Shown here: in pieces, positions 10,644-37,500 of the stretch
Position numbering within the stretch: the stretch's first letter is position 1
Layout of the letters: each line of letters starts with the position of its first letter
Origin: Bradyrhizobiaceae bacterium
Lineage (GTDB): Bacteria > Bacteroidota > Ignavibacteria > Kapaibacteriales > Kapaibacteriaceae
Length of the DNA: 64,000 nt
NCBI GenBank assembly: GCA_024103135.1
Contig: JAGFIZ010000036.1
Coordinates: forward strand, 9,684-73,683
Direction: 5' to 3'
Program-made: the position numbers and the translations under genes
Notes under the pieces: model-generated
The model's database searches: none
The model's input: only the letters and a program-made list of their open reading frames with translations
What the model was told of the DNA's origin: nothing

Positions 10644-10703
10644 ACGAATCCTTTCAAGTGCCGACAATTTACGAACAGCCCAGAGCGAAATCCCAAGGAC
10701 TGG

Positions 10704-20065: not shown

Positions 20066-23000
20066 GTGAACCTACGTCTTCTTAGTGTGTCGCTTGTTCT
20101 CCTGGGCATGTTATGCATTGCATTACATCTCAGCGGTCAGGTAGTCTCACACCCACTCCTAACACTTGAACAGACTGAGCTCGAGGTTGATCACTTGATC
20201 AACAGCGGGTCCGTCCGTTATGCTCAAGAAGTGTTAAGGGGGCTTGAGAGTCGGTGGGTAAGAGCAGCGACCGACGAATTGGTTCTTGATCAAGCGCGAG
20301 TGTTTGACGTAAGCAAGCAACCAGCGCTGTATGGTCGTACAACGCAGACGTTTATCGACCAGCGGTCGAACTCACCACGCATACCGTTTGTTCATGCTGA
20401 GCGCGGATTTTCTGCCTTGTTAGACAAGCAATGGAAGGTTGCGGCTAGTGAGTTTGAACGTGCTGCCTCAACCGCTCAAGAGCAAGGAGCTATTCGACAG
20501 GTTCCGGAATACAAGCATGTACAACATCTGGTCTTGTTCTGGTTAGGAGTTGCTCGCGCAAACGGTGGACTCTTTGCCGAAGCATTGAATGCCTTTGACG
20601 CTTGTGTGACGGCGGACACGGCAGGCGACTATGCAGCGAGGGCAGTGTTTGCAAAGGCGCAGTTGTATGAACGTAACGCAAACATCGATCAGGCCATTGC
20701 ATCGTATGCACAGGTGCGTACACGCTATCCGCAAACCAACATCGTGATCGCAGCACGGCTGCGAGAAGCACAGATGTTCCTCAACAAACATCAGCCCGAA
20801 CGTGCCACTGACGTTCTGGTTGGCGTTGATGCGTTGATCCGTTCCTCCGTCGCTTCCGATACCTCCACATTGGCGCGTCAGCTATACATTGAACATGCCG
20901 ATGAGCAGTTGCAGCTACTACGGACCAACATCCAGATTCAACGTGACCAGTACGCAGGGGCCTTGGACGCTGCACGATCGTTCGTACGTCAGTATCCTCA
21001 GTCGCGATACGCACCGCTGATCCAACTGTACGGAGGATATTCTGCATTGAGCATGGACTCGAATGCTGTTGCATCCGAGATGCTTGGTGCACTCATTCAG
21101 CGTGAGCCGTCGGAAGCCTCGGCCATCAAGCAACAGGCACAGTTGTACAATGCCGTTGCCCTGCAGCGGCTAGGTCGGGTTGATGAAGCTCGTGCAATGT
21201 TTGCCGACCTGTCGACGCAGCCCGATTATCCATATCAAGCTCAGGCACTGCTTGAGCTAGGTCAGCTTGCCTATCAGCGAGGGGACGTGTCTGCTGCACA
21301 GAAAAATCTCGACAGAGCAGAGCGTGCGGCATCGGACCCCTCAACCATGATTCGTGCACGAATCCTCCTCGGAGCCGTGTATGTAGAACAGCAGAAATGG
21401 GAAGAAGCCGCAGATGCCTATGCTCGCGCAGAACAACTGGCACTCAGTGCAACGGACCAGTACCTGAAGCATCGTAGTCGCTATCTGGCCGAGGCACGAC
21501 TGAAGAAGGGTATCTGCTTGCTTCAGCAGAACGAGAGGCCGGCAGCAATCAAGGCCTTGACGGAGTACTTGGGTAGTCATCCTACCGACCCTTCACGCGA
21601 TGAGGGAACGTTCTGGCTTGCCGAAGCCATGTATCGCTCCGACCTTTTACGCAATGCTCAGGAACTCTACGAAGACATTGTTCATCGGTATACCGCAAGT
21701 CCACGTCGCGAGGAAGCCATGTATGGTCTGGCCTGGACATACTTCCGCAAACGTGAGTTCGACAAGTCCGTGAACATGTTTAGTCAACTTGTCGGCACCT
21801 ACCCGAAGAGCAAGTTCACTGCTGATGCCCTTGTGCGTCAGGGTGATGGTCTCTACATCACCCGGCGGTATGGCGATGCAGCAGCAGCGTATAGCAAGGC
21901 AGCCCGTATAGCACCGTCGACTGACGAAGGACTGTATGCCGGGTATCAGGCTGGACAAGCCATGTATCGAGCTGGAAGACTAGACCAGGCCTTTGATCAT
22001 CTGCGCCAGTATGCATCGGCTCATCCTTCGAGCAAGCTTGCCGATGATGCTCTGTACCTCGCTGGTTGGATCGCCTTCCAGCAAAACAATGATGCTGGTG
22101 CCATTGCCGAGTTCGACCGTCTGCTTAAGGCATACCCGACGGGTGACCAGGCAGTGAAGGCCCTCTACACCATGGCCGATGCCCGCTATAACACGGGTGA
22201 TGTGCAGGGGGCTATCGACACGTACAAGACGGTAATCTCGAAGTATCCTGGCAGTCCGCTTGCCGTTGAGTCAGCCAAAAGCATCCAGATGGCCTTGGTA
22301 AGTGAGGGTCGTACGGATGAAGCTCTCGCTCTGGCTGACTCCTGGATTGCTGCCGACCCACAGGGGCATATTGCTCAGGAGTTTGCTTTCGAAAAGGCAA
22401 ACATTTTTTACACGGGCAGGAGTTACAAGAGTGCTGCGGACGAACTGCTTGCCTACATGGCCAAGTACCCACAGAGCAGCAAGGCCGATGAGGCATTGTT
22501 CTTGCTTGGAAAAAGCTATCTGTCGATGAATGAACTAGGTCAAGCCGTCGATGCATTCAAAACGCTGGAGACCAAACACCCCGACAGTCGCTGGATCTCC
22601 GTTTCGAAACTCGATCTCGCTGAGTTTCATAACGAGCAGGCACGTGCAAAGACTGCGGATTCGTTGTTTGCCATCGTACAGTTCAAATACCCAACGGATA
22701 CACCAAGTGCCTCACGTGCCGGTTTTGAGCGAGCCACCATTGCTAGACTCCAGCAAGACACCGTGGCAGCGATGCAGATCTTTCGATATACGGCCGACAA
22801 GTATCCGGCAACGGAGTATGGTGACCAGGCACGCTATCAGCTGGCATCACACTACCGTGCCATGCGACAGTACGATAGTGCACGTGCAGAGCTAGCCGTC
22901 CTCATACGGACCTCGCCTGACGCCTTGATCAGGGCCAACGCCCTGTACGACATCGGCGATTCATACGCAAGAGAACGCCAGTGGCCTCAGGCCATTGAAT

Positions 23001-23203
23001 TCCTCGAACGCATTCGTACGGAGTATGCCGGCGTCGAGGATTGGTACACACTGGCACTGATTGGCCTCGGAACGTGCTATGAACAACTTGCTCAACCCGA
23101 CAAGGCAAAGGAAGTCTATGGTGCGGTTGCACAGCTCCGACCTGAAGATGACTTTGGCAAGACGGCCATCGCTCGGTTAAAGAGACTGGAGAAGAAGCGA
23201 TGA
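20066..23203 (+). CDS. Giant secreted TPR protein built from at least 12 BamD/YbgF-type repeats
   Basis: A signal peptide is present. The module (Y/H)P.S....(A/E)AL(Y/F).(L/A)(G/A)..Y recurs about a dozen times (YPQSRYAPLI, YPKSKFTADALV, HPSSKLADDALYLAG, YPQSSKADEALFLLGKSY and others). Confidence 0.8.
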   Translation: MNLRLLSVSLVLLGMLCIALHLSGQVVSHPLLTLEQTELEVDHLINSGSVRYAQEVLRGLESRWVRAATDELVLDQARVFDVSKQPALYGRTTQTFIDQRSNSPRIPFVHAERGFSALLDKQWKVAASEFERAASTAQEQGAIRQVPEYKHVQHLVLFWLGVARANGGLFAEALNAFDACVTADTAGDYAARAVFAKAQLYERNANIDQAIASYAQVRTRYPQTNIVIAARLREAQMFLNKHQPERATDVLVGVDALIRSSVASDTSTLARQLYIEHADEQLQLLRTNIQIQRDQYAGALDAARSFVRQYPQSRYAPLIQLYGGYSALSMDSNAVASEMLGALIQREPSEASAIKQQAQLYNAVALQRLGRVDEARAMFADLSTQPDYPYQAQALLELGQLAYQRGDVSAAQKNLDRAERAASDPSTMIRARILLGAVYVEQQKWEEAADAYARAEQLALSATDQYLKHRSRYLAEARLKKGICLLQQNERPAAIKALTEYLGSHPTDPSRDEGTFWLAEAMYRSDLLRNAQELYEDIVHRYTASPRREEAMYGLAWTYFRKREFDKSVNMFSQLVGTYPKSKFTADALVRQGDGLYITRRYGDAAAAYSKAARIAPSTDEGLYAGYQAGQAMYRAGRLDQAFDHLRQYASAHPSSKLADDALYLAGWIAFQQNNDAGAIAEFDRLLKAYPTGDQAVKALYTMADARYNTGDVQGAIDTYKTVISKYPGSPLAVESAKSIQMALVSEGRTDEALALADSWIAADPQGHIAQEFAFEKANIFYTGRSYKSAADELLAYMAKYPQSSKADEALFLLGKSYLSMNELGQAVDAFKTLETKHPDSRWISVSKLDLAEFHNEQARAKTADSLFAIVQFKYPTDTPSASRAGFERATIARLQQDTVAAMQIFRYTADKYPATEYGDQARYQLASHYRAMRQYDSARAELAVLIRTSPDALIRANALYDIGDSYARERQWPQAIEFLERIRTEYAGVEDWYTLALIGLGTCYEQLAQPDKAKEVYGAVAQLRPEDDFGKTAIARLKRLEKKR

Positions 23204-24804
23204 TCACTGCAAGGTCGCCATGGTTTCTTCTTGTTCTACTCTGTGCATGTCAGCTCAGTACTCGTGAGCTCGATGCACAAACACAGCAGTCGCCTGCACA
23301 ACCAATCGAATTGCCAGAGTTCATCGTCACGGGCAAGGAGCAGGTTGGCGTACCTGGCGCCGCAAAGCAGGCACCGTTGCGTCCGCCCATGCTTGCCAAA
23401 GCCACGCTTGACAGCCTTAACCCTGTGGACAAACTCTCGCTCCCGCCTATGGCCGAAGTGCCACTGCCTGAGTATTCACGGTCGCGGCTGTACTTCCCGG
23501 GATGGGTGAGCGCAGAGTTAGGAAACTACATGACGCCGTCGGTCAGTGCAGGGTACTCACTGAATACTGGTGGGTACATGCTCGACGCCATCGGCAAGTT
23601 GCAGCTGTCTAATGGTTGGGTAACGGGGTCGGAGTTTCTTACCGGATCGTTAGGAGTACGAAGCTCATACGTGGCTCCTGAGGAGTATGTGGTCTTTGGT
23701 GGCAGTGAGACTCGGGTAGCACTGGACTTCGCCTCGACATCATACAAGCTCTATGCCTTGCAACATGCTCCATCACGCAACGTTCAGACAATGTCTGGTC
23801 TCGTTGCTACGACAGGGAAGTCTGGCGACTATCGGTTCGATGCACAAGTTGATGCCCGACGTTCAGCGCTTAATGACGCTGATAGTTCGACAGCGGCGAA
23901 TAATCAGTTGCATGGCACGGTAACCGTTGTGCGTCAGTGGGACTCAACGGCCTTCGGTGGATTTGTCGACGTCATGTTACCATCCTATCGTTCGCAAGGC
24001 TACTCGATGTTTCAGGGAGGTCTCACAGGCAGTTTCGATTTTAGAGACATGCATGTTTCGTACTCGGCCTCGGTACAAACAGCAAACTCAACGATGAACG
24101 ATCAACGCTTTGGTGTGGGTGTATCGGCGAAAGCACAATGGCAGCTAGGGTACTTGTACACGGTTGATGCACAGGTCAACAGTGGACTTCGGCTGGTTAC
24201 GATAAGCGACATCATGTCAAGCAATCCGTATGTCAGCAGTCAATCAACAGTAGACGTTCCGTATGATTTGGCCGACGTCACTGCAGGTCTACGACACCAC
24301 CCAACGAATCAGCTGACGATTGCCGGGTTTGCACGATTACGCCTAACCGATAGAGACCTAGTGTGGAGCAGTGCTAATGGTGGTGTGTTCACGCCGCAAT
24401 GGCTTCAAACCTCCACAACATCACTGCATGGGTCGGTACGTTGGTGGGCTTCGCATGCCGACGCCGTCACTGCAGATCTGACGCTTACCCACAGTACCGT
24501 TGATTCCGTGAACACGCCATATGTACCGGCAGTACAAGCTGCAGTAGGTTATGAACGGGCGTGGACGGACAAGTTGAGCGCAAGTGCAACCATCATCTAT
24601 ATTGGTGAGCGGTATGTTGATGTAACGTCTGACAGATTGCTAGACGGCTATGTCGACGTTAGACTAGCTGGCCGCTACACCCTAAACACCGCATTCGACG
24701 TCTTTGTTCGAGCTGAGAATCTTGTTGGAAGCACAATGGTCATCTGGGATGGTTACATCGAACGTGGAGTATTTGTGAGCGCTGGTCTCACATGGAGGTT
24801 TTAA
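23200..24804 (+). CDS. Outer-membrane beta-barrel, TonB-dependent-receptor-like but apparently plug-less
   Basis: It has a signal peptide, a TonB-box-like ELPEFIVTGKE, a Pro-rich linker and long alternating beta-strand sequence. The TBDR-like C-terminus is VRAENLVGSTMVIWDGYIERGVFVSAGLTWRF. The start overlaps the TPR stop (ATGA). Confidence 0.7.
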   Translation: MITARSPWFLLVLLCACQLSTRELDAQTQQSPAQPIELPEFIVTGKEQVGVPGAAKQAPLRPPMLAKATLDSLNPVDKLSLPPMAEVPLPEYSRSRLYFPGWVSAELGNYMTPSVSAGYSLNTGGYMLDAIGKLQLSNGWVTGSEFLTGSLGVRSSYVAPEEYVVFGGSETRVALDFASTSYKLYALQHAPSRNVQTMSGLVATTGKSGDYRFDAQVDARRSALNDADSSTAANNQLHGTVTVVRQWDSTAFGGFVDVMLPSYRSQGYSMFQGGLTGSFDFRDMHVSYSASVQTANSTMNDQRFGVGVSAKAQWQLGYLYTVDAQVNSGLRLVTISDIMSSNPYVSSQSTVDVPYDLADVTAGLRHHPTNQLTIAGFARLRLTDRDLVWSSANGGVFTPQWLQTSTTSLHGSVRWWASHADAVTADLTLTHSTVDSVNTPYVPAVQAAVGYERAWTDKLSASATIIYIGERYVDVTSDRLLDGYVDVRLAGRYTLNTAFDVFVRAENLVGSTMVIWDGYIERGVFVSAGLTWRF

Positions 24805-24806
24805 CC

Positions 24807-25604
24807 ATGAGCACCTTTGACAACGATTGGGAAAACACCGCATTCGACGACGCATCTGAAGGGTTTATGCGTTCACCACAAGAGGAAACATCTCCTGCTT
24901 CCATTACACAGCCCCCTGACGGCTCCAAAGAGTCAACAGAGAAGAAAGGAAGGGGCGCGCTATTCTGGTTCGGGTCTGCAGCTGCACTTGTCTTGCTTGT
25001 TTCCATCATTGGAGGTGGCTTGTATTGGCTCACGCGGCCAACCATCGAAGATCAAGCATTCATGTCGAGTCCTACCACCGAGGGTGCAAACCCAACTCCT
25101 CCGGTAGCTGTGCATGAGGATAGTACGACCATTGATCTTACCAAGTTGGCAGACACATCGAAGCCAGTTGAACAAGCACCTACTAGCACTCGGGAGCAGT
25201 TGGCAATGGTCGACCGTGCACTCAACGAGAAACCAGAGCAACCTAAGGCAACACCGAACAACAAACCACAACGTGAATCAAAGCCGACGCAGCCAGCGAA
25301 GCGTGTCGAGCAACCACGAACACAACCACGTATGAATACGCCAGAAGCCACAGCTGCAAAGGAAGAAGTCGAGAATCAAGAATACGTCATCCAAGTATTC
25401 AGTAGTCCGTCCCGTAGCGATGCTGCAGAGTGGCTGCAGCTTTTGCGTGAAAAGCAAGTTGCCGATGGACGCATCGTAGAGCAAAAGATCAAGGGCGAGA
25501 GCTGGTATCGCGTCCGCTTCGGAAGCTTCGACAATCGGTCTGACGCCGAGGCGCAAGCCCGTAAACTGGGCTTCAGACAACCATGGATTGCTAGGGTTCG
25601 ATGA
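24807..25604 (+). CDS. SPOR-domain (peptidoglycan-binding) bitopic membrane protein
   Basis: The TM segment is ALFWFGSAAALVLLVSIIGGGLYWL. The C-terminal region YVIQVFSSPSRSDAAEWLQLLRE...WYRVRFGSFDNRSDAEAQARKLG is a SPOR domain. A GGAGG lies 9 nt before this ATG, and the ATG at 24792 is an alternative start. Confidence 0.8.
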   Translation: MSTFDNDWENTAFDDASEGFMRSPQEETSPASITQPPDGSKESTEKKGRGALFWFGSAAALVLLVSIIGGGLYWLTRPTIEDQAFMSSPTTEGANPTPPVAVHEDSTTIDLTKLADTSKPVEQAPTSTREQLAMVDRALNEKPEQPKATPNNKPQRESKPTQPAKRVEQPRTQPRMNTPEATAAKEEVENQEYVIQVFSSPSRSDAAEWLQLLREKQVADGRIVEQKIKGESWYRVRFGSFDNRSDAEAQARKLGFRQPWIARVR

Positions 25605-26347
25605 GACCACACCAAGACATTAACACAGCGCAGATTCAGTTGCGGTGGAGTCCAAATGCCTTCAAGGGCTTTGGAATTTCCCTTGCTGTGTTCCTCATTG
25701 TCTTGTTCATTACCAAGTGCACGAAGATCGACCCACCAGCATCGTATTCGATACCGGGCTCGACGACTGTTGACCTGGTGTTTGGTGCCGGGAACTCGAC
25801 CGGACCCAGTGGGGGCAACCTTACGCAAGAAGGTAAGGCGAAACGCGGACCAGAAGGAACACTGCTTGAAGATGCATCATCAGCCAAGTCGTCTAAAGTC
25901 ACGCGAACTACATCCGACCCAACACAAAGTGCACGTCATAAGCTTGTACCCGATGTCGGGAGCAAGGGCCGAGGTAGCGAACACGCCACCGGTGAAGAAG
26001 AGCGTGGTCTGAAGGACGGTTCGGATGACGGACCTGGTCTTGGATGGGCAGGTGCAGGGGCTGGTAAGGGGCTAGGGTACGGACTTGAATGGGGCGGGGG
26101 AGGCAATCGAATTGTGCTCAACAAAGTTCTTCCGAAGTTTCCTCCAGGTACTCTCAATACACAAGTCAAGCTTCGATTTCGTGTAAGGCCCGACGGCACC
26201 GTCAGCTGGGTCATGCCTGTGCGAAAAGGTGGCAACCCTGCCGTTGATCAAGCGGCAATTCAAGCCATGTATCGGTGGCGATTTAATCCATTGTCGACCG
26301 ACGTCGAAATGGAAGGAACCATTGCCTTTACATTCCAGAACTCTTGA
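25601..26347 (+). CDS. TonB-family protein (N-terminal TM, Gly-rich linker, TonB_C domain)
   Basis: The C-terminus is VKLRFRVRPDGTVSWVMPVRKGGNPAVDQAAIQAMYRWRFNP. The start overlaps the SPOR gene stop (ATGA). Confidence 0.8.
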   Translation: MRPHQDINTAQIQLRWSPNAFKGFGISLAVFLIVLFITKCTKIDPPASYSIPGSTTVDLVFGAGNSTGPSGGNLTQEGKAKRGPEGTLLEDASSAKSSKVTRTTSDPTQSARHKLVPDVGSKGRGSEHATGEEERGLKDGSDDGPGLGWAGAGAGKGLGYGLEWGGGGNRIVLNKVLPKFPPGTLNTQVKLRFRVRPDGTVSWVMPVRKGGNPAVDQAAIQAMYRWRFNPLSTDVEMEGTIAFTFQNS

Positions 26348-26578: not shown

Positions 26579-27922
26579 ATGCCCTTCAACATTGGAATTA
26601 TTGGCACGGGATACGTTGGTTTGGTTACGGGTACTTGTCTAGCTGATGTGGGCAATTCTGTACTCTGCGTGGACGTCGATGCTCAGAAAATCGAGCGGAT
26701 GAGAGGGGGCGATCCAATCATCTTTGAAAAGGGGTTGGACCGGTTGCTAGAACGCAATCTCAAGGAAGGACGTATTACCTTTACCTTGGACCTTGCAGAA
26801 GCCGTCAGGACGTGTACAATACTCATGTTCTGTTTGCCAACGCCTCCAGGCAAGGACGGGTCAGCTGACCTTGCAGCAGTTGTGTCTGTAGCAAATCATA
26901 CAGCACGTATCCTGCACGAAGAGCAGATCACTGAGCCAAGGATCGTCGTCAACAAAAGCACCGTTCCTGTTGGTACGGCAGCGATGATCGAGGCCATCTT
27001 CGCAGAGCATGCACCCAATGCCGACGTCCATATCGTAAGTAACCCGGAATTCCTAAGCGAGGGCGTATCGGTTGATGACTTCATGAAACCTGAGCGCGTG
27101 ATTGTTGGCACCAAGAGCGAGTATGCAAAGAAGGCCATGGTCGACCTCTACCAACCGTTCGTCCGATCTGGAGCACCGATCTATTGCTTTGATGTTCCGA
27201 GCGCCGAGGTGACCAAGTATGCGGCCAATGCGTTTTTAGCAACGAAGATTTCCTTTATGAATGACCTGTCGAAGTACTGCGAAATCGTCGGGGCTGATGT
27301 TGATAACGTTCGTCGAGGAATAAGTGCCGACAGCAGGATTGCCACGGGATTCCTGTATGCCGGTGTCGGCTATGGCGGTAGCTGCTTCCCCAAGGATGTG
27401 AAGGCCATCATCCATTCTGCAAAAGCTTTGGGAATGTCGTTGGAAGTGATCGAAGCAACTGAACGCGTCAATCACAAACAACTGCAACGATTTATTCAGC
27501 GCATACTCGATCGTTTTGATGGTGATGTTGCAGGCAAACACTTTGCCGTGTGGGGACTGTCATTCAAGCCTAATACGGACGATATCCGTGATGCACCATC
27601 CCTGGAAATCATTCGTGCGCTTACACAACGAGGTGCCACGGTATCGGCATTCGACCCCGAAGCCATTGCCAACACGCAAAAAGCCCTCGGTGATATGATC
27701 ACCTATGCTCCAAGCATGTACGACGCAACGGTTGGTGCTGATGCGCTGATCATTCCAACGGAGTGGAATGAGTTCAGAAAACCGATGTTTTCCCGGGTGA
27801 AGGAACAGATGAAGCAACCACTCATTTTTGATGGTCGCAACCTCTACACCCTTGACGAGGCTGCAGAAGCCGGCTTTGAATACTACAGCGTTGGTCGTGC
27901 CAGCGTTATCCCCGACGCCTAA
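26579..27922 (+). CDS. ugd: UDP-glucose 6-dehydrogenase
   Basis: The NAD-binding fold IGIIGTGYVGLVTG, the catalytic GGSCFPKD and a 447-aa size all fit. Confidence 0.93.
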   Translation: MPFNIGIIGTGYVGLVTGTCLADVGNSVLCVDVDAQKIERMRGGDPIIFEKGLDRLLERNLKEGRITFTLDLAEAVRTCTILMFCLPTPPGKDGSADLAAVVSVANHTARILHEEQITEPRIVVNKSTVPVGTAAMIEAIFAEHAPNADVHIVSNPEFLSEGVSVDDFMKPERVIVGTKSEYAKKAMVDLYQPFVRSGAPIYCFDVPSAEVTKYAANAFLATKISFMNDLSKYCEIVGADVDNVRRGISADSRIATGFLYAGVGYGGSCFPKDVKAIIHSAKALGMSLEVIEATERVNHKQLQRFIQRILDRFDGDVAGKHFAVWGLSFKPNTDDIRDAPSLEIIRALTQRGATVSAFDPEAIANTQKALGDMITYAPSMYDATVGADALIIPTEWNEFRKPMFSRVKEQMKQPLIFDGRNLYTLDEAAEAGFEYYSVGRASVIPDA

Positions 27923-29462
27923 GCACCTTGCCAGAAATCTTGCGGAATAGGAGGAACTGTCGTCGAGTGCGCCACCACCGACGCAGACGCATGGCCAACA
28001 TGCGTAGCAATCGAGCAAGTGAGAAGTTGTTTGCGCCGATTCCACCTTGGAGCATGTTTCGAATCTGACTTCGTTCACTGTCTGAAATCGAGACGTCATC
28101 GGCTGAAGTACCTGGTCTGTTCAGTATCTGACCGAGCATCTGTTCCAACTCCTGTGCATACCGTTCCAGTCGTGGGGCATCAATGGTGTTGTACTGCATC
28201 AGGAGGTACAGATGATCATAGAGCATTGCTGCTCGCTTAATGTCTTCAACCTGATGTTCATCGCGAAGTTCTTGGAGTAGGGCACCTGCCAGTTCTTCCA
28301 GTTCGCGGACCTTATCCTCAGGAAAGGAGAACATCTCCTTGGGGTCGATATCGTCGACCTCTACGTAGACGGTGCTGAGCTTTTGTATCTCCAGCCCGTA
28401 CTGTTTCGTAACGTCAGCGGCAATACGCTGCTTAAGGGTCTCGATCTGCTTGACAACGATGCTTAGCTGACTCTTTAGCGACTGTGTACGCATGCCACCA
28501 GAGGCCGATGACAGACTAACCTCGTACTCATGTTTTTGCTGCAACAACTCCCGCAGACGGATTGCATCTTCACTGTTGCTGTGGTACACCTGATCTTCGA
28601 TGATCTTGTCGTCTACCACCATCCGTGCATGACCAATCTTCACGGTATTTACAGTGATTGTATCACCCATTTGCGAGCGTAGCCCATCCAGATCGATATG
28701 TGCTACACCATCGGTAATCACAAGAATCTGAGCGTGGGAAAGCTGGCTTTCATGCGAGATATCGTCAATCGCCTGCTGGAGTGCTTTCTGCAGGACGGTA
28801 CCATTTCCGGTAGCATCCAGGTGCATTACCGTGCTGATCAGTCGCTGGAATGAAGGCACATCCCGAGCCACGTGTAGTTCGCCAACCGTAAGATCGAACG
28901 TTCTGCAGAACACGGTTCCAAGCTCTTGCTCGTTTCGCTTGAGGAATAGGTAGGCGATGGACTTTGCGAGTAAGATGCGGTAATGCAGTCGCATTGAGCT
29001 CGAGGTGTCGAACAGCACATACACCTTTTGCTTCCTGTCGTCCGGTGCAAAACGGTCACTCTCCGTTTGATACCGAAAGTTGTGCGGCTGTCGTGGACGG
29101 GGCATCCAGAGTGAGCGTTCTGCAAGTCGCTGAAGGAAAACCGTTTCTGGGAGTAGAAACTGATATGGATAGATCTGACGGACCTCCGTGACACTACGAA
29201 TCAGATCGGCTTCGTACTCCTTGACCTCAGTAACAAGCGGAATGAGAATCGACTGTAGGGTAGAGTCTCGGTCCGTTGGCTCCTGGAGTTCGAGAATCGG
29301 TGCTAACGCACGCGACAAGTCATGGGAGAGATCTTCCAGGATTCGGGCGATCTCATAGATCAATGTGAAGTTGTCAGGTAGATGTGCCTCGACATGGTCA
29401 AAGAAGCCATACTCCTCCATCTGGGAGAAGAATTGCGAGGTTTCTATCACTTCACGAGACAT
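27906..29462 (-). CDS. VWA-domain protein (ViaA-like partner of the adjacent AAA+ ATPase) with long helical C-terminal extension
   Basis: MIDAS residues VYVLFDTSSSM, ATGNGT and LVITDG are present. The C-terminus has charged heptad-like helices and a basic tail RLRRWWRTRRQFLLFRKISGKVLRRRG. Confidence 0.8.
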   Translation of the reverse strand: MSREVIETSQFFSQMEEYGFFDHVEAHLPDNFTLIYEIARILEDLSHDLSRALAPILELQEPTDRDSTLQSILIPLVTEVKEYEADLIRSVTEVRQIYPYQFLLPETVFLQRLAERSLWMPRPRQPHNFRYQTESDRFAPDDRKQKVYVLFDTSSSMRLHYRILLAKSIAYLFLKRNEQELGTVFCRTFDLTVGELHVARDVPSFQRLISTVMHLDATGNGTVLQKALQQAIDDISHESQLSHAQILVITDGVAHIDLDGLRSQMGDTITVNTVKIGHARMVVDDKIIEDQVYHSNSEDAIRLRELLQQKHEYEVSLSSASGGMRTQSLKSQLSIVVKQIETLKQRIAADVTKQYGLEIQKLSTVYVEVDDIDPKEMFSFPEDKVRELEELAGALLQELRDEHQVEDIKRAAMLYDHLYLLMQYNTIDAPRLERYAQELEQMLGQILNRPGTSADDVSISDSERSQIRNMLQGGIGANNFSLARLLRMLAMRLRRWWRTRRQFLLFRKISGKVLRRRG

Positions 29463-29464
29463 TG

Positions 29465-30817
29465 CTACGAAGCCCTGTTCAGTTCTCGTTCCACGGCTAT
29501 CATGGTTTGCGTAAACACTTGCTCAACACTATGCTTAAGCTCGCGCACCTCGTCGCATACGGGAATGAAGTCCTTCAGGAATTGCTCCAGCATCATCTTG
29601 TTGCGATCCTTAGGCTGTTCGTTCCCGAAGGTCTGTTTCAGCCACTCTACGAGCGATCTGCGGATTGCCGTATTGGAGAGGTTGCTAAGGGGCTCCTTCA
29701 TCTTGGAAGGGTCTGCTCGCAGCGTCTCAAGGATCTCGGTAAAGTCCAACAACACCGTCACCTGATCAAAACCGCGTGCTGATGTGAGACTGTTGAGTAC
29801 CGTCGTATAGGCCTTCCTGAACAGTGCCACCTCCTCGGGTAGGCCCACGGTGGCGAAGATGAAGTAGAGTCTGCTTACATCGTCGTGGACAACTGACGAA
29901 CGACCTTTGAGAAGAGCCAACGCACGCAACAGGTCAAGCGACTTGGCCTGCGTCCGTGGAGATATGTAGAAGTCCGATGTAGCACCAGTGTTCTTCTTGT
30001 CGTGCATCTCTCTGTTCCTAAGAAACTCGAAATGCCTGATGACGATGTTGGTAAAGTATAGCATCTCGTTCGAGACGCTGATAACCAGGTCGGTCGCTTC
30101 ACCACGGCACACCTTGTAAAGGTGCTGAAGCCGCTTGAACGGAATCTTCTCTGGCGGTGTTATGGTACGTCCACCATGCGCCAGGTACTGCTGAGAAATT
30201 TTGTACTGAATGAACGGATCCTTGTCGGGAAGGATAATGGCCTTGTACATGAACCGGTCCAGCAACGCCTCGGTAACCTCGTTCACACGAAGGTAGTTTG
30301 TTGCAGCAATCACGGTGTGAAGGGGGCTTTCCACACTTTGAACACCACGCATGAGCTTGCGTTCGTTCAAAAGCGATAAGAGTGCACGGAGAGTGAAGTC
30401 GTTGGCATCAAAGATCTCGTCAATAAATCCAAACTCGCTCTCCACCAACGAGTCAGCCGTGTTATGGATGATTCGTCCGGTCTTGAGTTGCTCCAGGTCC
30501 AACCCACCAAAAAACGTGTCTGGCTGTTGCTCCTTGCTTGCTTGAACGCGGAAGAGTCGTGCACCTTCGAAAACCGAGAACACTTGTTCGGCAAGGAGAC
30601 TCTTACCAGCACCTGTGCGACTCTGCAAGAGCATGTGCTCGCCGGTAAGCAAGGCACAGATCGCCTGTTCGATCACTTCCTCGCGGTTGATCACACGGCT
30701 GCCAATAAACGCTGCTGCTGCCTTGAGTTCTGCAGCAATGGCTTCAACACTTGGTAATGGTTGAAGGTTTTGTGTATTCATAGTTCCTCCGTTCCAGCGA
30801 ATATAGTCCACGATCAA
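29465..30817 (-). CDS. MoxR/RavA-like AAA+ ATPase
   Basis: The P-loop SRTGAGKS, Walker B GFIDEIFD, sensor-1 VIAATN and LLDRF are collinear by eye with E. coli RavA. The alternative ATG at 30781 (MNTQNL) is possible. Confidence 0.8.
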   Translation of the reverse strand: MIVDYIRWNGGTMNTQNLQPLPSVEAIAAELKAAAAFIGSRVINREEVIEQAICALLTGEHMLLQSRTGAGKSLLAEQVFSVFEGARLFRVQASKEQQPDTFFGGLDLEQLKTGRIIHNTADSLVESEFGFIDEIFDANDFTLRALLSLLNERKLMRGVQSVESPLHTVIAATNYLRVNEVTEALLDRFMYKAIILPDKDPFIQYKISQQYLAHGGRTITPPEKIPFKRLQHLYKVCRGEATDLVISVSNEMLYFTNIVIRHFEFLRNREMHDKKNTGATSDFYISPRTQAKSLDLLRALALLKGRSSVVHDDVSRLYFIFATVGLPEEVALFRKAYTTVLNSLTSARGFDQVTVLLDFTEILETLRADPSKMKEPLSNLSNTAIRRSLVEWLKQTFGNEQPKDRNKMMLEQFLKDFIPVCDEVRELKHSVEQVFTQTMIAVERELNRAS

Positions 30818-30835
30818 CCCCTGTAAATTGCACTA

Positions 30836-32671
30836 ATGTCAGAAGAGCCAGAAACGCGTCACGAGCAACTCCTTAGTAAGGTTGCCCAGTTGCCTTCCTT
30901 GCCGGGAGTCTATCTACATCGTGATGCAGAGGGAACCATCATCTACGTTGGCAAGGCAAAGAGCCTGCGAAACCGCGTAAAGGCCTATTTCCAGGATGCC
31001 CGACATGTAGATGCCAAGACCAAGGCATTGAAAAAGAATATTGCCGATGTAGAGGTCATCGTCACCGATACCGAAGCAGAAGCTCTCCTTCTGGAAAACA
31101 ACCTGATCAAGGAGCACCAACCGAAGTACAACATCCTGTTGAAGGACGATAAGAGCTACCCGTACATCCGCATAACGAAGGAGGAGTTCCCACGGGTGCT
31201 AAAGACTCGGCATGTAGTGAGGGACGGGAGCAAATACTTTGGTCCGTACACGGATGGAACCTACTTGTTCTATCTGCTGAAAACGCTGCGATCGATTTTC
31301 CCCTTACGGACATGTGATCTGCCGCTGACGGAGTCAACCATTGCCCAAGGCAAATACCAGCTTTGTTTGGAATACCACATCAAACGATGTGACGGTCCGT
31401 GCGTTGGACTTATCTCTCGAGAACAATACAACGCTTACATCAAGCAGGTACAACAGGTTCTGAGTGGAAAAACGCGCGACCTTGAGAAGCAGATGGAAGA
31501 GAAGATGATGGAGTTGGCTGAAGAACTGCGATTTGAAGAGGCAGCCATCATTCGTCAGCGTCTGCTTAAGCTTCGCGAATACACGGCCAAGCAGAAGGTC
31601 ATGAACAGCGATGCATCGGACCGTGACGTGATTGCACTGTCGCGTATCGGCAAGGATGCCTGCACCGTCATCCTTACCATTCGCGATGGTAATCTGGTCG
31701 GCAAACGCCATTTTTTCCTCCCTGCTGAATCAAGCATCTCTGATGCAGAGCTCATCCAAACAACGGTCGAGCGCTGGTATATCGATCAGGATCAGATTCC
31801 CGACGAAATCCTGCTACCAATAGAACTGCCAGAAGTGGCCTTGCTAACGGAATACCTTGGTACAAGGGCTCATCATGCCGTTGGCATCACCGTTCCCGTC
31901 ATTGGCGACAAGAAGAAACTCATCGGCATGGCCGAAACCAATGCCGAATACCTGCTCCGTGAACACTTGATGCAACAGGCACAACGTGATCAAAGCATCC
32001 CGAAGGATCTACTGTCGCTCCAGAAAGACCTGCAGTTGGAGGCCCTGCCCAGAAGAATCGAGTGTTACGATAATTCACACATGCAGGGCGACGAGTATGT
32101 GAGTTCCATGGTGGTGTTTATCGATGGCAAGCCACGCAAGAGCGAGTACCGAACCTTCAGACTCAAGCAAGAAGGTAACGACGACTTCGAAGCGATGCGT
32201 GAGGTTATCCGACGTCGGTTTACGGGCTCCTTGAAGGACACGCCATTGCCCGATCTCTGCATCATTGATGGTGGAAAGGGGCAAGTGTCTGCCGCAATGG
32301 AATCACTGCATGCCATTGATCTTGCTGACAGGTTTGCCGTAGTCGGCTTGGCAAAGAAACTCGAAGAGATCATCCTCCCACATGGCGAAGACAGCATCAT
32401 TCTGCCTCGCACGTCGGGAAGTCTGCGCATGCTTCAACGAGCACGCGACGAAGCACATCGAGTTGCAATCACGTATCACAGAAAACTCCGAGATAAGCGA
32501 ACTTTGCAAACAGAGTTGACGAGTATTCCTGGCGTTGGAGTGAAAACTTCTACTACCTTGCTCATTCGATTTGGATCGGTTGATGGACTCAGGCTAGCAT
32601 CCGTCGAACAGATCGCCGACGTTGTTGGACAATCGCTAGCACAACGCATCTACCATCATCTGCATCCATGA
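30836..32671 (+). CDS. uvrC: Excinuclease ABC subunit C
   Basis: The GIY-YIG motif (GVYLHRDAEGTIIYVGKAKSLRNRV), a UVR domain (EEAAIIRQRL), the endonuclease domain and a C-terminal HhH are present. Confidence 0.95.
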   Translation: MSEEPETRHEQLLSKVAQLPSLPGVYLHRDAEGTIIYVGKAKSLRNRVKAYFQDARHVDAKTKALKKNIADVEVIVTDTEAEALLLENNLIKEHQPKYNILLKDDKSYPYIRITKEEFPRVLKTRHVVRDGSKYFGPYTDGTYLFYLLKTLRSIFPLRTCDLPLTESTIAQGKYQLCLEYHIKRCDGPCVGLISREQYNAYIKQVQQVLSGKTRDLEKQMEEKMMELAEELRFEEAAIIRQRLLKLREYTAKQKVMNSDASDRDVIALSRIGKDACTVILTIRDGNLVGKRHFFLPAESSISDAELIQTTVERWYIDQDQIPDEILLPIELPEVALLTEYLGTRAHHAVGITVPVIGDKKKLIGMAETNAEYLLREHLMQQAQRDQSIPKDLLSLQKDLQLEALPRRIECYDNSHMQGDEYVSSMVVFIDGKPRKSEYRTFRLKQEGNDDFEAMREVIRRRFTGSLKDTPLPDLCIIDGGKGQVSAAMESLHAIDLADRFAVVGLAKKLEEIILPHGEDSIILPRTSGSLRMLQRARDEAHRVAITYHRKLRDKRTLQTELTSIPGVGVKTSTTLLIRFGSVDGLRLASVEQIADVVGQSLAQRIYHHLHP

Positions 32672-34533
32672 CACCGCTTATACGCACCCTACGATCTGAA
32701 CTCCGATCACTCCTGGCCAACCCATCAAAGCCGTACACGGTTCCCGGTCTGTGGGTAGGGAGTGATTCGCCGGTGACGTTCCCAAGTGCACCAGCCTATC
32801 TGCTTCATCAGTTTCAGGTCATCGACCAAGACGAACGCCGACGTCGGCACCGTCCTTGGTCAGTCTCCCATGCTCTGGCCTACAATTGCATGGTTCGGCA
32901 TGTAACGTCATACAATCATGGCGAAGGAACTGCAGAAAGTGGATGGCGTACTACAGGGACGTTCATCAAGTTGGCAGCACTGCTTCCGTATCTGGTACGC
33001 ATGGATGTGGACACGCTGGTTCTGATGCCCATAACGGAGATCGGTACGGTTGGACGTAAGGGAACCCTCGGCTCGGCTTATGCAGTGAAACATCCATGGC
33101 ATATCGATCCACTTCTCGCAGAACCATCGATTCCTATTAGTGTCGAGGACCAAGCACGTATTCTTGTCGAAGCATGTCATGCTCTCGGAATCCGCGTAGT
33201 TCTTGAAACCGTACTCCGCACGGCAAGCATTGATAGTTCGCTTGCTCAAACACATCCTGAATGGTTCTACTGGGTGGACGAAGGCAAGGTCGCCGAACTG
33301 GAAGGGGGCTTCGTAGCACCCCGATTCTCTTCTGAATCGATAAAGGTCATGAAGCAGATGGTCGCTTCAGGCAATCATCACAACTTGCCTGAGCCCCCTG
33401 ACACCTATCGCGACTTGTTTACTCCACCACCACTCCGTGTAGAAGCCGACGAACGTGGCTGGAAGGGTATAGGTCCAAAACAACGCACGTTGAGGGTACC
33501 GGGTGCCTTTGCAGATTGGCCGACCGACGACCCGCAGCCTGCGTGGACGGATGTGACGTATCTGCGCCTTCACGACCATCCACAGTATCGGTACATGGCC
33601 TACAACACGGTGCGGATGTTCGAGAGTGCGCTGGAGGTCGACGAGTACAGGTCACAACCGCTGTGGAATACCATAGCGTCAATCATACCGTACTACATCC
33701 GCATGTTGAATATCGATGGTGCGATGATCGACATGGGACATGCCTTGCCCGCAGACCTACGTATGCGGATTATGCGAGAGGCACGAGCGCTGCGACAGGA
33801 CTTCTTGCTACTCGAAGAAAATTTCTCAGATAGTGATGATCAGTCACGGCACTCCGGCTACGACGCTGCCGTAGGAAGCCTGCCACTTGTTGCCACATCG
33901 GTTTCAGCAATTCGAGACTTCATCCAGAACAAGGCTGGTTCGACGTCGACAGTGAAGTACTTTGGTACGCCCGAATCACACAATACGCCAAGAGCTCAAT
34001 ATCATTGGAAGCATGGCAAGGCCGTTGCAGCTGTGTGGACGGTGCTACGTGTACTTCCTAATGCGTTGGGGTTTGTCCACGCTGGTATCGAGTTGGATGA
34101 GGTGGTACCGGTCAATACTGGCCTTGGGTTTTCGGACGAGCTCGCTCGTGCTTATCCACCGGAGAAGCTCCCGTTGTTTAGTGATGTGCCCTTACCATGG
34201 GATACGCAAAGTGTGGTGCTGACGGCTATTGTGCGTGTAGCGCGCTTGCTCCATGGCACGTCGTTCTGGGAGCATTCAACGGAACATGATCTCCTGATTC
34301 CATTGACGATGCCAGAGGCAGGTGTGGCCTTCCTCCGCATCCCGTCCAATAGCAGACAGGGCTTGTTATGCGTCGCCAATCTTTCAGATCAACCATTGAG
34401 ATCACGTCTAACGATCCCTGCCGATAGTGGTGTGATGTTCCTTGCACCGAATGCCAAGGTCAAACGAGCGGGGAGTACGATTGACGTTGAACTGGATCCG
34501 TGGGATGTGGAGCTGGTCTTCACACTCCACTAG
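32668..34533 (+). CDS. Alpha-amylase-family (GH13-like) protein
   Basis: Candidate conserved regions are IRVVLETVLRTAS (I), DGAMIDMGHAL (II), LLLEENF (III) and GTPESHNTPR (IV). The start overlaps the uvrC stop (ATGA). Confidence 0.65.
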   Translation: MTPLIRTLRSELRSLLANPSKPYTVPGLWVGSDSPVTFPSAPAYLLHQFQVIDQDERRRRHRPWSVSHALAYNCMVRHVTSYNHGEGTAESGWRTTGTFIKLAALLPYLVRMDVDTLVLMPITEIGTVGRKGTLGSAYAVKHPWHIDPLLAEPSIPISVEDQARILVEACHALGIRVVLETVLRTASIDSSLAQTHPEWFYWVDEGKVAELEGGFVAPRFSSESIKVMKQMVASGNHHNLPEPPDTYRDLFTPPPLRVEADERGWKGIGPKQRTLRVPGAFADWPTDDPQPAWTDVTYLRLHDHPQYRYMAYNTVRMFESALEVDEYRSQPLWNTIASIIPYYIRMLNIDGAMIDMGHALPADLRMRIMREARALRQDFLLLEENFSDSDDQSRHSGYDAAVGSLPLVATSVSAIRDFIQNKAGSTSTVKYFGTPESHNTPRAQYHWKHGKAVAAVWTVLRVLPNALGFVHAGIELDEVVPVNTGLGFSDELARAYPPEKLPLFSDVPLPWDTQSVVLTAIVRVARLLHGTSFWEHSTEHDLLIPLTMPEAGVAFLRIPSNSRQGLLCVANLSDQPLRSRLTIPADSGVMFLAPNAKVKRAGSTIDVELDPWDVELVFTLH

Positions 34534-34553: not shown

Positions 34554-37500
34554 CTACCAACGCTTGACCCACGAGACCATGGGGACGAACTTCCAGCCGG
34601 AACTCGGTCTTGAGGTAACTGTCGAGATGCCGACGTAGCTGATACCAAATTCAAATGCATCGGTCTCACGGAAGTACCGCGCCACACCGGTGATGGGTAT
34701 AAAATCCATGGTTCGCATAAAGAAGGTTTCGGCACATAGCTTCCACTGTTCTGCAATGCGATAGTCGTAGGCAATACCAGCTATCGTGGCATCAGCCCTG
34801 AACCTACCGTCGAACAACGTTGTGTGGTCTTTGAATGCATAGCCGAGGTAGAGATTTAACCGACTGTCATCATTGCCATAGCCCAGCGTTGCCCACAAGG
34901 CATTGAAGGTAATCTTGCTATCGAATCCATTCGTGAGTTCCTGATTGTACCAACTCTGTCCTAGCTGAAATCCACCGCCGAACACAAGGTCCGGTGCAAG
35001 GGGAATTGCTCCCTTCATGCCGACAGACCATGCACCACTTGCTGATGCCCGGTCATGCCCGAAGCCAATCCATGCGCTGTTGAAAGGTAACATGCCGCCT
35101 ACGAGGACCATGAGGTTGTCCGTTACACTGTATCCCAGGCTAACACCAAGGACGTCGTACACTCCGGTTGTGATCGTTCCTGCGGGAGGAATGATGGCTG
35201 ACGGAAGCATGATTGACCGGAACGTTGTTGGGTCGGCATGTGCTGCAAACACATTCGAATCTGCACGAACAAACAGTGTAGCCGTGATAGGATCATCAAA
35301 GCCATTCACAAGAAACTCAACCTGCGTAGCAAACCTACCTGCGCGTGGAGCAGTTACCTGAACGTCGATGGATTGATGCTGTCCTTCTGGTAGGGTTACT
35401 CCACCACTTGTCAGTACCGTGATCGTTGGGTCGGCGCCAGCCACAGTTCGTATATCACGAATGCGGATGGAGGACGAGCCCGTGTTGTGAAGGAGGTCCT
35501 TGACCGTGATGGTCACGGGTGTACCAATGGGGACTGTTCCGAGATCGCGGATATCGCTGCCGGCCTGGAGGACGCCTGGCGGACACCGTCCGCTGATCCG
35601 TGCATTGATGATGCCCGAACTCGTTTCTGCAACGATCAGTGCGGCACGTTCTCCAACAGCGTGGGGATGGAAAGAGTAGGTGATAGGCCGACTCTCACCA
35701 GGGGCAAGGACGAACTCCTTGGGTGCGTTGAGTCCAAAGTCCGGTGCTTGTGTACCCTCGATGCGAAGTCCACGAATGGTGATGGAGTCCTTGCTGGTGT
35801 TGGTGATTGCCGAGACAACGATGCTGTCTACGCTCTGCCCGACGGCACACTGTCGTAGTCTGACGGGTGCAAGCACTGCACGAGCGTAGTAGATGCTCCA
35901 GAGTCCATCACTTTGATCCTGTTGTAATAGTGGTGTTCTAAGGTCGTAAACCTGAACGTTCGAGGACGCATCGATCACTGCCATCTTCGAACCATCGGCA
36001 GGTGCAGACGGACGTCCGACGCCGCGCTGTACACGCAAGAGCTGGATTCCGGTTTGTGCATCGAAGGCCGTAGCAAAGCTCAGGGTCGAGAGCAGAAGGG
36101 TTGAGTTGTTTGCGAGGATCTGAGCGCTACTGGCGCCGCCAGGCTCTGATAGGCGACGAATGCTCACAACGTGATTACCAGTTGCTACATCGACAATTTT
36201 CGTCTCGTCGCGACCTGTCTCGACTGCCAGTCGACGTCCATCGGGCGAGAAGGCAGCATACGTGTTGTCATTCTTGAAGAACCTGCTAGCAATGGGGCGC
36301 GGCTTCTCCAAGGTTGCAACATCCCACAGGGAGGTATTGCCAGCACCATCAACGGCTATCAGTGAGCGACTGTCGGGTGAAAAGACAGCACTGTAGTACG
36401 ATGGTACGTTCGGTGATTTAAGGATGCGAACGTCCTGAGTATTGGTCACCGAGAATAAGCGGACCATGCTGTCTTGCTCACATACGGCAACGTAGGCACC
36501 ATTGGGACTGATCGACACATCGCGAATTGCTGACTGTCTGCGCGGCAACTCTGCCAGGAGGTTTCCATTGATAGCATCAAGTACACTCGTAACATCTCCG
36601 TCGGCGCCACCTACAACCACATACCTACCGTCGCTGCTTACATCGCAAGCGATAGGAAGTTTTGTTACGGCTCGACGCCAGCGGAGCGCACCATCAGGCA
36701 AGGTGTAGAAGGCAACTGAGTCTCTTGCCCACGTAAGAAGGCGGTCACCCTTCGACGAGATCAGTACACGCTCACCTTGTCCTAACACGGAAACGAGTGT
36801 ACCATTTACACCATCCCACAACATTGCGGGTGGAGGTAACTGATGCTGTCCACTGAGTCCGGGAGCTTGGCCAGTGACAATGAGCTTGCCGTCTGGCGTG
36901 TAGGCAACATCTGAATATGGCTTGCCTGTGATGGTGAACATCGGTTTTGTTTGATCTGCCTGTGGTTTGACGTGAGAAACACGAAGCAGGCAGCTGTCTG
37001 AAGTTTCATGACCGGTATTCCAACGCCGGGTAAGCCCCTTTTCACCCTCCGAAACAAGCATCCATGTGCGCCCTGCATCAAAGCTGATCTCGACCTTTAC
37101 TGGAATCCCTGGTGGTATGCCAGTCCACCGTAGGTCTGTCATGGACCTTGCAGGTAGTCGCTCTCCACCATTGGGATGCACCACTGTCAGCGTCTTCCTG
37201 GACGGTGGTGCAAGAGGATTGCCAGAGGTGAGGTAGAGTAGCGGTGTCGGACACGGTTGGGCATCGAGTTCGACATCGGCGACGATGAAGGTCGTGTCTG
37301 ACTTGATACACGTGAAGCTAACGACGAGTGAGTCGCCTGGTTGGATGGTGTATGGGAGCTTTATTGCTCCCATGGTAAATGCATCGGGTCGGCTACATCT
37401 AATTGACGTGATCGTTGTCGCTGCGGCACGATTGACGATGGTAAATGACTTCGTGAGAGAACCGGCACTATCAAACTGCAAGCTTGGCTGACGCACATCA

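Follow-up and report, generated by a model that had tools for sequence, protein, structure and literature searches.

What kind of molecular machine is encoded by the two minus-strand open reading frames (ORFs) that span positions 27906-30817 of a 64,000-nucleotide (64-kb) stretch of contig JAGFIZ010000036.1 (assembly GCA_024103135.1; family Kapaibacteriaceae), hereafter the window? An earlier note, made from the sequence of this stretch alone, recognized a MoxR-type AAA+ ATPase and a VWA domain protein, and it saw in them an atypical MoxR-VWA pair. Such pairs are common, and few of them have known clients, namely RavA-ViaA, NorQD, CbbQO and CoxDE. Here we conclude that the pair is an undescribed subfamily in which a RavA-clade MoxR protein is combined with a divergent ViaA-like partner, and that no curated model describes it. 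Furthermore, we think it somewhat probable that the pair is a RavA/ViaA-type MoxR chaperone module of the Kapabacteria core genome that acts through the chain of events proposed below.

The RavA-clade ATPase and its VWA partner

The first of the two genes (29465..30781, minus strand; stop codon TAG 29465-29467) encodes, from ATG 30781, a 438-aa protein that, on the sequence evidence, is a member of the RavA clade of MoxR AAA+ proteins and not of the CbbQ/NorQ clade. The profile of its family aligns with Escherichia coli RavA with an hhalign probability of 99.1% (E 8.7e-19; residues 25-306 to RavA 17-278) and finds RavA in the PDB at 1e-20, and the only sequence relatives that phmmer detects in the PDB are E. 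coli RavA (1e-18) and CHU_0153. In Pfam, the protein matches bpMoxR (PF20030; 107.9 bits, E 4.7e-31, residues 18-182), AAA_5 and, at residues 268-308, AAA_lid_8, the RavA-type lid (23.9 bits vs a cutoff of 22.8); neither Pfam nor NCBIfam reports a match to the NorQ or CbbQ families. The AlphaFold2 (AF2) model (pLDDT 80.8, pTM 0.82) has as its best Foldseek matches the RavA structures 4upb, 6q7l and 3nbx (E 2e-15 to 1e-13, TM-score ~0.55). Thus, the description of the ATPase as RavA-like and collinear with RavA through the AAA+ core stands, RavA being the top PDB match by sequence as well as by fold. The earlier note had made its claim depend on the pair lying outside the characterized MoxR-VWA families of the same domain order; the ATPase, for its part, does fall in the RavA clade.

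The subfamily is unusually well conserved, the mean column identity of its ATPase being 62% over an entire bacterial lineage. The catalytic motifs of the ATPase were judged in an alignment of 30 homologues. The Walker A variant (30599..30622, minus strand) reads S54-R-T-G-A-G-K-S61 and is aligned to RavA GPPGIAKS; S54, R55, T56, G57, G59 and K60 are invariant, the family pattern being SRTGxGK[ST], and the serine in the place of the first glycine, already spotted in the earlier note, is, as read from the alignment, a hallmark of this family. The Walker B motif (30407..30433, minus strand; F117-D125, FGFIDEIFD, with D121 and E122) is aligned to RavA FLDEIW, and the stretch from sensor-1 to sensor-2 (29954..30298, minus strand) contains N162 (30296-30298), R176 of LDRF (30254-30256) and R276 in ISPRTQAK (29954-29956). 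All these residues are invariant, as is the segment QASKEQQPD, so that the Walker B, sensor-1 and LDRF motifs reported previously are fully borne out, and so is the equivalence of the lid segment with RavA, which aligns at RavA 248-279. Downstream of the lid, the C-terminal region (29465..29839, minus strand; approximately residues 315-438) is all-helical and stands in place of the LARA and RavA_C domains of RavA, the AF2 model being purely helical beyond residue 312 according to DSSP.

The second gene (27906..29462, minus strand; stop codon TAA 27906-27908) encodes the ViaA-like partner of 518 aa, which is a divergent protein. Pfam detects VWA_2 at residues 148-252 just above threshold (27.6 bits vs a cutoff of 27) and VWA_CoxE (PF05762) below it (15.7 bits vs 26.4), and VWA_CoxE matches are recorded for many homologues of the partner, as they are for ViaA. 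No curated family in Pfam, NCBIfam or a PDB profile search covers the N- or C-terminal regions, and sequence and profile searches of the PDB with the partner gave no match. The AF2 model (pLDDT 73.4, pTM 0.65) retrieves with Foldseek only generic VWA domains, those of CLCA1, the MDN1 MIDAS domain, Rpn10, BatB and NorD.

The layout of the partner becomes clear from its model and from an alignment of 28 family members. The protein starts with a conserved, acidic helical region (29292..29462, minus strand; residues 1-57, helical in AF2; 12 Asp and Glu vs 3 Lys and Arg) that carries the motif FFxRMExFGFFDxVExHLPDxFTxxYEIARxLED, and this motif is retained in relatives at 22% identity. The N-terminal domain of ViaA binds RavA (PMC9489729), and by analogy residues 1-57 are a candidate ATPase-binding element. 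Ahead of the VWA core, the partner has two low-confidence linkers (residues 60-89 and 117-143 in AF2) and a conserved pre-VWA motif, YPxQFLLPExVFxQRLAERSLW...PDxRKQKVY. [quoted passage not shown]

The core is followed by a helical hairpin (28377..28610, minus strand; residues 285-362; helices 285-294, 298-319, 323-354 and 357-362 with pLDDT ~83-91) and then by a strand, VYVEVDD (28350..28370, minus strand; residues 365-371, AF2 strand 365-369), that is probably the last strand of the VWA fold. The segment YGxEIxxLSxVYVxVDDI that includes this strand is conserved, with Y355, G356 and D371 invariant, and distant relatives of the partner have FIEIxDL at the same position. Because the strand after the hairpin is conserved, the VWA fold is read as continuing past it, and the modeled hairpin is probably an insertion within the VWA fold rather than the start of a separate coiled-coil domain. 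The earlier note placed about 230 aa of heptad-like helix after a central VWA domain; the end of that domain, which this puts near residue 280, probably lies beyond the hairpin. In the NorQ-NorD and CbbQ-CbbO systems, the MIDAS of the VWA adaptor binds a carboxylate of the client and a protrusion of the VWA domain engages the pore of the ring (PMC9976466, PMC13036017); this finger of NorD enters the NorQ pore, a mechanism proposed to apply to MoxR/VWA couples at large (PMC9976466, PMC13036017). VWA domains associated with MoxR proteins usually have an extension that binds the pore (PMC9976466, PMC13036017), and the hairpin is a candidate equivalent of the finger by comparison with NorQD.

Beyond the VWA fold, the partner has an acidic helical bundle (28044..28319, minus strand; residues 382-473; AF2 helices 382-401, 405-424, 430-448 and 461-473), in which A412, H417 and L439 are invariant and to which no family or PDB match was found. 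The protein ends in a basic amphipathic helix (27909..28019, minus strand; residues 482-518, SLARLLRMLAMRLRRWWRTRRQFLLFRKISGKVLRRRG; AF2 helix 482-510). The very basic amphipathic character that had been ascribed to this tail is fully corroborated: the last 45 aa have a net charge of +14, and the tail holds the most amphipathic 18-mer of the entire partner, with a hydrophobic moment of 0.78. In 16 of the 28 family members no other segment ranks higher in amphipathicity, and all 28 have a basic tail (+7 to +18). ViaA is tethered to the inner membrane by an Arg-rich amphipathic helix at its C-terminus (R476, R479), to which anionic phospholipids bind (PMC9489729), and on this analogy the tail of the partner is a predicted inner-membrane tether.

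Retention, linkage and surroundings of the pair

That the pair is not a chance feature is shown by the conservation of both proteins, with identities of 42-85%, across more than 100 species genomes. The homologues of both come from metagenome-assembled genomes (MAGs) of the Kapabacteria type (Bacteroidota, family Kapaibacteriaceae, of the Fibrobacterota-Chlorobiota-Bacteroidota, or FCB, group); 189 homologues of the partner were found, the full-length ones being 42-76% identical, and when each GTDB species was represented by a single genome, a scan detected the partner in 111 genomes. Linkage and synteny were assessed by ORF clustering of 78 Kapabacteria loci. The ATPase gene lies directly upstream of the VWA gene, on the same strand, in 54 of them, and the gap is 0-10 nt in 26 of the 32 adjacent loci with a placeable start codon, with an overlap (-4) in one. 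In about 22 of the 78 loci, counted among those with sufficient upstream sequence, the ATPase is not adjacent, and in GCA_044228285.1 and GCA_046328995.1 the two genes lie on one contig ~37 kb and ~96 kb apart, respectively. Given that both genes are kept though unlinked in two genomes, the pair is co-retained and is not an indivisible cassette; measured against the earlier note's own yardstick, that the pair be conserved together in related genomes, the co-retention stands and constant linkage does not.

The neighbors of the pair vary by subclade: the clade of the window has ugd and uvrC, and a second clade has genes for Usp, a sigma-54 activator and rhodanese. The genes around the pair in the window are core genes (aminoacyl-tRNA synthetases, MutS, UvrC, Lon, IF3, DnaJ and HrcA), and the 64-kb window has uniform GC content, with no GC anomaly or island signature. 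The pair lies in core-genome DNA and is most likely housekeeping in character. As a matter of record keeping, several MAG records in the set (L011, L017, L028, L029, L042, L046, L049 and L081) have implausible labels, namely Hyphomicrobiales, Didemnitutus, Melioribacter roseus P3M-2, Patescibacteria, Chitinophaga pinensis and Chloroflexota; their proteins are 50-73% identical to the family, and the labels are probably binning or labeling errors.

How far beyond the Kapabacteria can the pair be traced? An exhaustive profile search with the partner against 1.84 billion representatives gave 682 matches that fall into three tiers: the Kapabacteria core, with E below 1e-100; proteins of 470-560 aa that align nearly end to end (E 1e-47 to 1e-30); and proteins in which the pre-VWA and VWA region alone aligns, to a C-terminal VWA domain, which is a ViaA-like layout. 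One member of the third tier weakly matches the ViaA model; a homology search with a mixed alignment returned the core family only. The second-tier proteins are ~22% identical to the partner in the window and keep the N-terminal motif, the MIDAS, the post-insert strand and a hydrophobic or basic C-terminal helix. A RavA-like ATPase, 36-38% identical to that of the window and with SRTGMAKS or SAAGVAKS as its Walker A motif, is encoded directly upstream in two of the three second-tier loci examined. A metagenome scan for one second-tier group found 39 loci, of which 37 were clustered together with two distant loci (L092 and L093), and among the 39 clustered loci the ATPase gene is directly upstream of the VWA gene in 34. 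In 26-27 distant loci, the pair ends an operon of adk, a gene for a ~130-aa protein with four transmembrane segments, a PAS/HATPase_c kinase gene, the ATPase gene and the VWA gene; L098 3317-9575 (loci L097-L135) is an example, with a convergent epimerase gene downstream. A different combination is seen in L091 (6797-9416), where an unrelated AAA_14/DUF4143 ATPase, not a MoxR protein, accompanies P0389 (471 aa, 63 contigs), a second-tier relative of the partner.

Within the window, the junction of the two genes (29460..29467, minus strand) consists of TAG (29467-29465), CA and ATG (29462-29460), so the 2-nt gap that had been reported is exact. The length previously given for the ATPase requires correction: the ORF itself is there, delimited mechanically at 29465-30817 (minus strand; 450 aa from TTG 30817), but ATG 30781, which gives 438 aa, is probably the start codon. 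It is favored because GGAGGA (30790-30785) precedes it, a 100%-identical database protein has 438 aa and the homologues start there; most of these are ~430-440 aa long, and their alignment begins at the Met of ATG 30781. Possible expression signals 5' of this codon (30785..30827, minus strand) comprise, in addition to GGAGGA, the sequence TTTACA-16-TATATT (30827-30800), which matches the promoter consensus at 10 of 12 positions and whose position would suit ATG 30781. A promoter and terminator scan of the region gave counts at the level of chance (3 such promoter sites vs 3.2 expected), and because such sites are as frequent as chance the promoter-like site is only a hint.

The flanking genes, named as ugd and uvrC from the outset, are identified as such by Pfam. 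The 3' ends of the convergent ugd and VWA genes overlap by 17 nt (27906-27922), leaving no space for an intergenic terminator, and on the opposite strand, 54 nt upstream of the ATPase gene, uvrC begins. On the plus strand, a co-directional cluster at 20066-26347 encodes a 1045-aa TPR/YfiO(BamD)-like protein, a 534-aa protein without a family, and SPOR-domain and TonB_C-domain proteins; it is kept beside ugd in ~30 related loci and resembles an envelope module. A 621-aa ORF at 32668-34533 (plus strand), whose sole and weak family match is GHL6 (glycosyl-hydrolase-like), shares 4 nt with the uvrC stop, and the pairing of uvrC with a ~620-aa ORF is kept in 31-37 related loci. Near the end of the window, a very large ORF of 2241 aa with a GTG start occupies 56581-63306 (plus strand).

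The proposed mechanism and its alternatives

So how might such a module work? Starting from what is observed, that is, homology, integrity of motifs, architecture, distribution and gene linkage, a mechanism can be proposed in which the 438-aa protein would form a RavA-like AAA+ hexamer that, judging by its motifs, should be catalytically competent. The 518-aa partner would be the adaptor, its MIDAS gripping an acidic side chain of the client via the bound metal ion. Coupling of the adaptor to the ATPase ring may be the task of the acidic helices at the N-terminus, of the hairpin in the VWA fold or of both, after the examples of the ViaA N-terminal domain and the NorD finger, respectively. The Arg/Lys/Trp-rich amphipathic tail would keep the complex at the inner membrane, on its cytoplasmic face, as the corresponding helix does in ViaA, and ATP hydrolysis would serve to mature or remodel the client, a conserved complex that is probably associated with the membrane. 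The steps that we infer are the formation of the hexamer, the mode of contact between ATPase and adaptor, the tethering to the membrane and the client's nature.

A number of findings weigh against this proposal. On the side of the ATPase, the first glycine of Walker A is replaced by serine; the only NCBIfam match, to the RavA equivalog NF010054, has 70.5 bits vs a cutoff of 681 and is confined to the N-terminal 160 residues; and neither LARA_dom (PF20265) nor ATPase_RavA_C (PF12592) is detected by Pfam at E<=1, whereas E. coli RavA matches both. On the side of the partner, the NCBIfam model of ViaA (NF008230) gives no match, and the similarity to E. coli ViaA is weak, with an hhalign probability of 18% (E 1.3e-3; residues 88-282 to ViaA 255-452), and is limited to the VWA domain and the motif that precedes it. 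With its helices and its length of ~75 aa, the hairpin is unlike the β-stabilized finger of NorD, and because of this dissimilarity its role in pore binding is an analogy only. The Arg-rich tail helix could bind nucleic acid in place of lipid. Finally, ORF clustering of the 78 loci revealed no third gene shared across subclades, and no client gene is adjacent to the pair in the window or conserved across subclades in these loci; the earlier remark on the lack of the usual client genes next to the pair holds for the window. In the 78 loci and in the 39 clustered distant loci alike, the search for a client gene turned up lineage-specific synteny only.

The alternative in which the pair would be a true functional orthologue of enterobacterial RavA-ViaA, with fumarate reductase, NADH dehydrogenase I and the aminoglycoside-sensitization pathway as its clients, accounts for the fact that RavA is the closest characterized ATPase, as well as for the same tight order of ATPase and VWA genes and the same order of elements in the partner, including the basic amphipathic helix. 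We regard it as unlikely, considering that the scores are far under the equivalog cutoffs or the models do not match at all, that the LARA domain is absent, that the N-domain of the partner is less than half as long as that of ViaA and has no detectable similarity to it, that the partner has ~200 extra helical residues and that the window contains no frd or nuo genes. It is also quite improbable that the tail binds nucleic acid or ribosomes and that the pair, in the manner of Midasin/Rea1, helps to assemble a ribonucleoprotein or a DNA-bound complex. The extreme Arg content and the +14 charge of the tail are compatible with such a role, as are the translation and DNA repair genes nearby: in the window these are uvrC and IF3, and in L006 the unlinked ATPase gene has L21/L27 beside it. 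However, Trp, Leu and Phe give the tail a clear hydrophobic face, and its hydrophobic moment is high; the tail of distant relatives is hydrophobic rather than strongly basic, and the neighbors differ among lineages. Still other links appear to connect the pair to flagellar or sigma-54-dependent functions, which we find very hard to accept as its role: a VWA gene without an ATPase neighbor lies directly upstream of fliC-fliS-fliD-flaG in L052, L053, L056, L086 and L089, all of one subclade; rpoN is directly downstream of the unlinked ATPase gene in bacterium HR21; 8 loci of one subclade have a sigma-54 activator gene immediately upstream of the pair; and flagellin genes lie 6.5 kb off in the distant relative L092. 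The annotated ORFs of the 64-kb window include neither flagellar genes nor rpoN, and the links may be single rearrangements because each is restricted to one subclade. For the record, the VWA gene is at ~10001-11550 in most of the five loci with fliC, and the sigma-54 theme recurs at 8589-9827 of L007/L008 and 11377-13017 of L009, perhaps by coincidence.

Could the pair instead be a defense device? The earlier note invoked the MoxR-vWA NTP-dependent conflict systems, and a specific version of this idea would make the pair a system of the β-propeller ternary type (Kaur, Burroughs, Iyer, Aravind 2020), in agreement with the name of its top Pfam match ('bpMoxR', PF20030), with a weak match of the ATPase to the PADLOC model mad8 (E 0.0026) and with the presence of a 1280-aa VWA and WD40 protein 4 kb away. 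The Pfam label is not diagnostic because E. coli RavA matches bpMoxR better than the ATPase in the window does (191 vs 108 bits), and therefore this model picks up AAA+ modules of the RavA clade at large. The β-propeller ternary systems comprise a vWA protein with a C-terminal propeller of ~4 blades, a third transmembrane/TPR/propeller component and, often, a GxxxTAKS P-loop (PMC7159879), the third component having a variable N-terminus, a transmembrane segment, TPR repeats and a β-propeller (PMC7159879). In contrast, the partner has no β-propeller (its C-terminal half is helical in AF2, with no propeller match in Pfam), no third gene of this kind is conserved in the 78 loci, and the P-loop is SRTGxGKS, not GxxxTAKS. 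Nor is there an effector domain, hypervariability or a patchy distribution; the genes are highly conserved, reside in core-genome DNA and can be unlinked. PADLOC-DB yielded no significant defense match, the mad8 hit being the only one for the ATPase and none being found for the VWA protein. The 1280-aa protein (34554-38396, minus strand) has a VWA domain at its N-terminal end, repeats of the WD40/β-propeller type and an Ig domain like that of HYDIN/VesB. Its N-terminus is, by eye, hydrophobic and signal-peptide-like, and the protein is probably secreted or located in the outer membrane and without relation to the pair. As a third component, it is ruled out by this N-terminus together with synteny only in the subclade of the window (12 loci). 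With the propeller, the third component and the GxxxTAKS motif all absent and the PADLOC match not significant, the link to conflict systems did not survive, the conflict or defense hypothesis is already largely refuted, and its β-propeller ternary version has hardly any chance of being correct. The pair is most likely a housekeeping chaperone rather than a defense system, and the practical warning is that the Pfam name 'bpMoxR' is no evidence of a conflict system.

A more far-reaching possibility is suggested by the distant relatives. The cytoplasmic PAS histidine kinase and the four-transmembrane protein encoded directly upstream of the pair in the sister lineage suggest that the module could be a signal-regulated remodeler of an inner-membrane complex. 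The pair would then represent an unrecognized, widespread class of membrane-tethered MoxR machines, with an adaptor that engages the ATPase by a long helical hairpin in place of a β finger and has its own lipid anchor, and would be a signal-regulated remodeler, not a constitutive chaperone; we put this forward as a speculation that is probably wrong in its full extent.

Comparison with known MoxR-VWA systems

None of these findings comes as much of a surprise to the specialist, and they settle no long-standing question. The pair, which looks nearly single-purpose, is nevertheless a clean comparative system for what RavA-ViaA-type machines do at the membrane, and it could show whether a VWA finger in the pore is a mechanism that also holds for helical inserts.

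The Bacteroides Bat aerotolerance operon includes a MoxR protein of the MRP type (AAA_3), a DUF58 protein and the membrane-spanning BatA/B. It resembles the present pair in that MoxR and VWA proteins come together in the same phylum and the VWA domain of BatB is among the fold matches of the partner, and it differs in that the AAA_3 MoxR, DUF58 and BatA/B are not present with the pair; the distant locus L093 carries an operon of this type separately, beside the pair. With the β-propeller ternary conflict systems, the pair shares the PF20030 match, membership in a wider RavA-like branch and the non-canonical character of the P-loops. An assignment to the CoxD-CoxE type finds no counterpart in the gene content, the annotations of the window including no cox (CO dehydrogenase) genes. 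The NorQ-NorD and CbbQ-CbbO systems share with it the general logic of a hexameric MoxR ring and a single VWA adaptor, and the NorD VWA domain is again among the fold matches; in contrast to these systems, the ATPase of the pair is of the RavA clade, nor and cbb genes are not nearby, the protrusion is a long helical hairpin, and the partner has a tail resembling a membrane anchor.

The closest comparison is that with RavA-ViaA. The differences are these: the ATPase is without LARA and RavA_C and has SRTGxGKS in Walker A vs GPPGIAKS in RavA, the N-region of the partner has ~145 aa vs 319 aa in ViaA and no detectable similarity to it, and the partner has, in addition, the ~75-aa hairpin in the VWA fold and a helical bundle of ~90 aa. 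Accordingly, ~240 aa follow the VWA core in the partner, whereas ViaA has its VWA domain at the C-terminus. The domain order that the earlier note considered atypical is, however, parallel to that of ViaA element by element, and what remains atypical is the shorter N-region, the hairpin insert and the extra bundle. The AAA+ module and the lid of the ATPase are homologous to those of RavA, the gene order, ATPase and then VWA with the genes nearly abutting, is the same, and the partner, like ViaA, consists of a helical N-region, a VWA domain with MIDAS and an Arg-rich amphipathic C-terminal helix. By its sequence, the pair thus appears to keep the one feature of ViaA that has a tested function, a C-terminal helix of the lipid-binding type.

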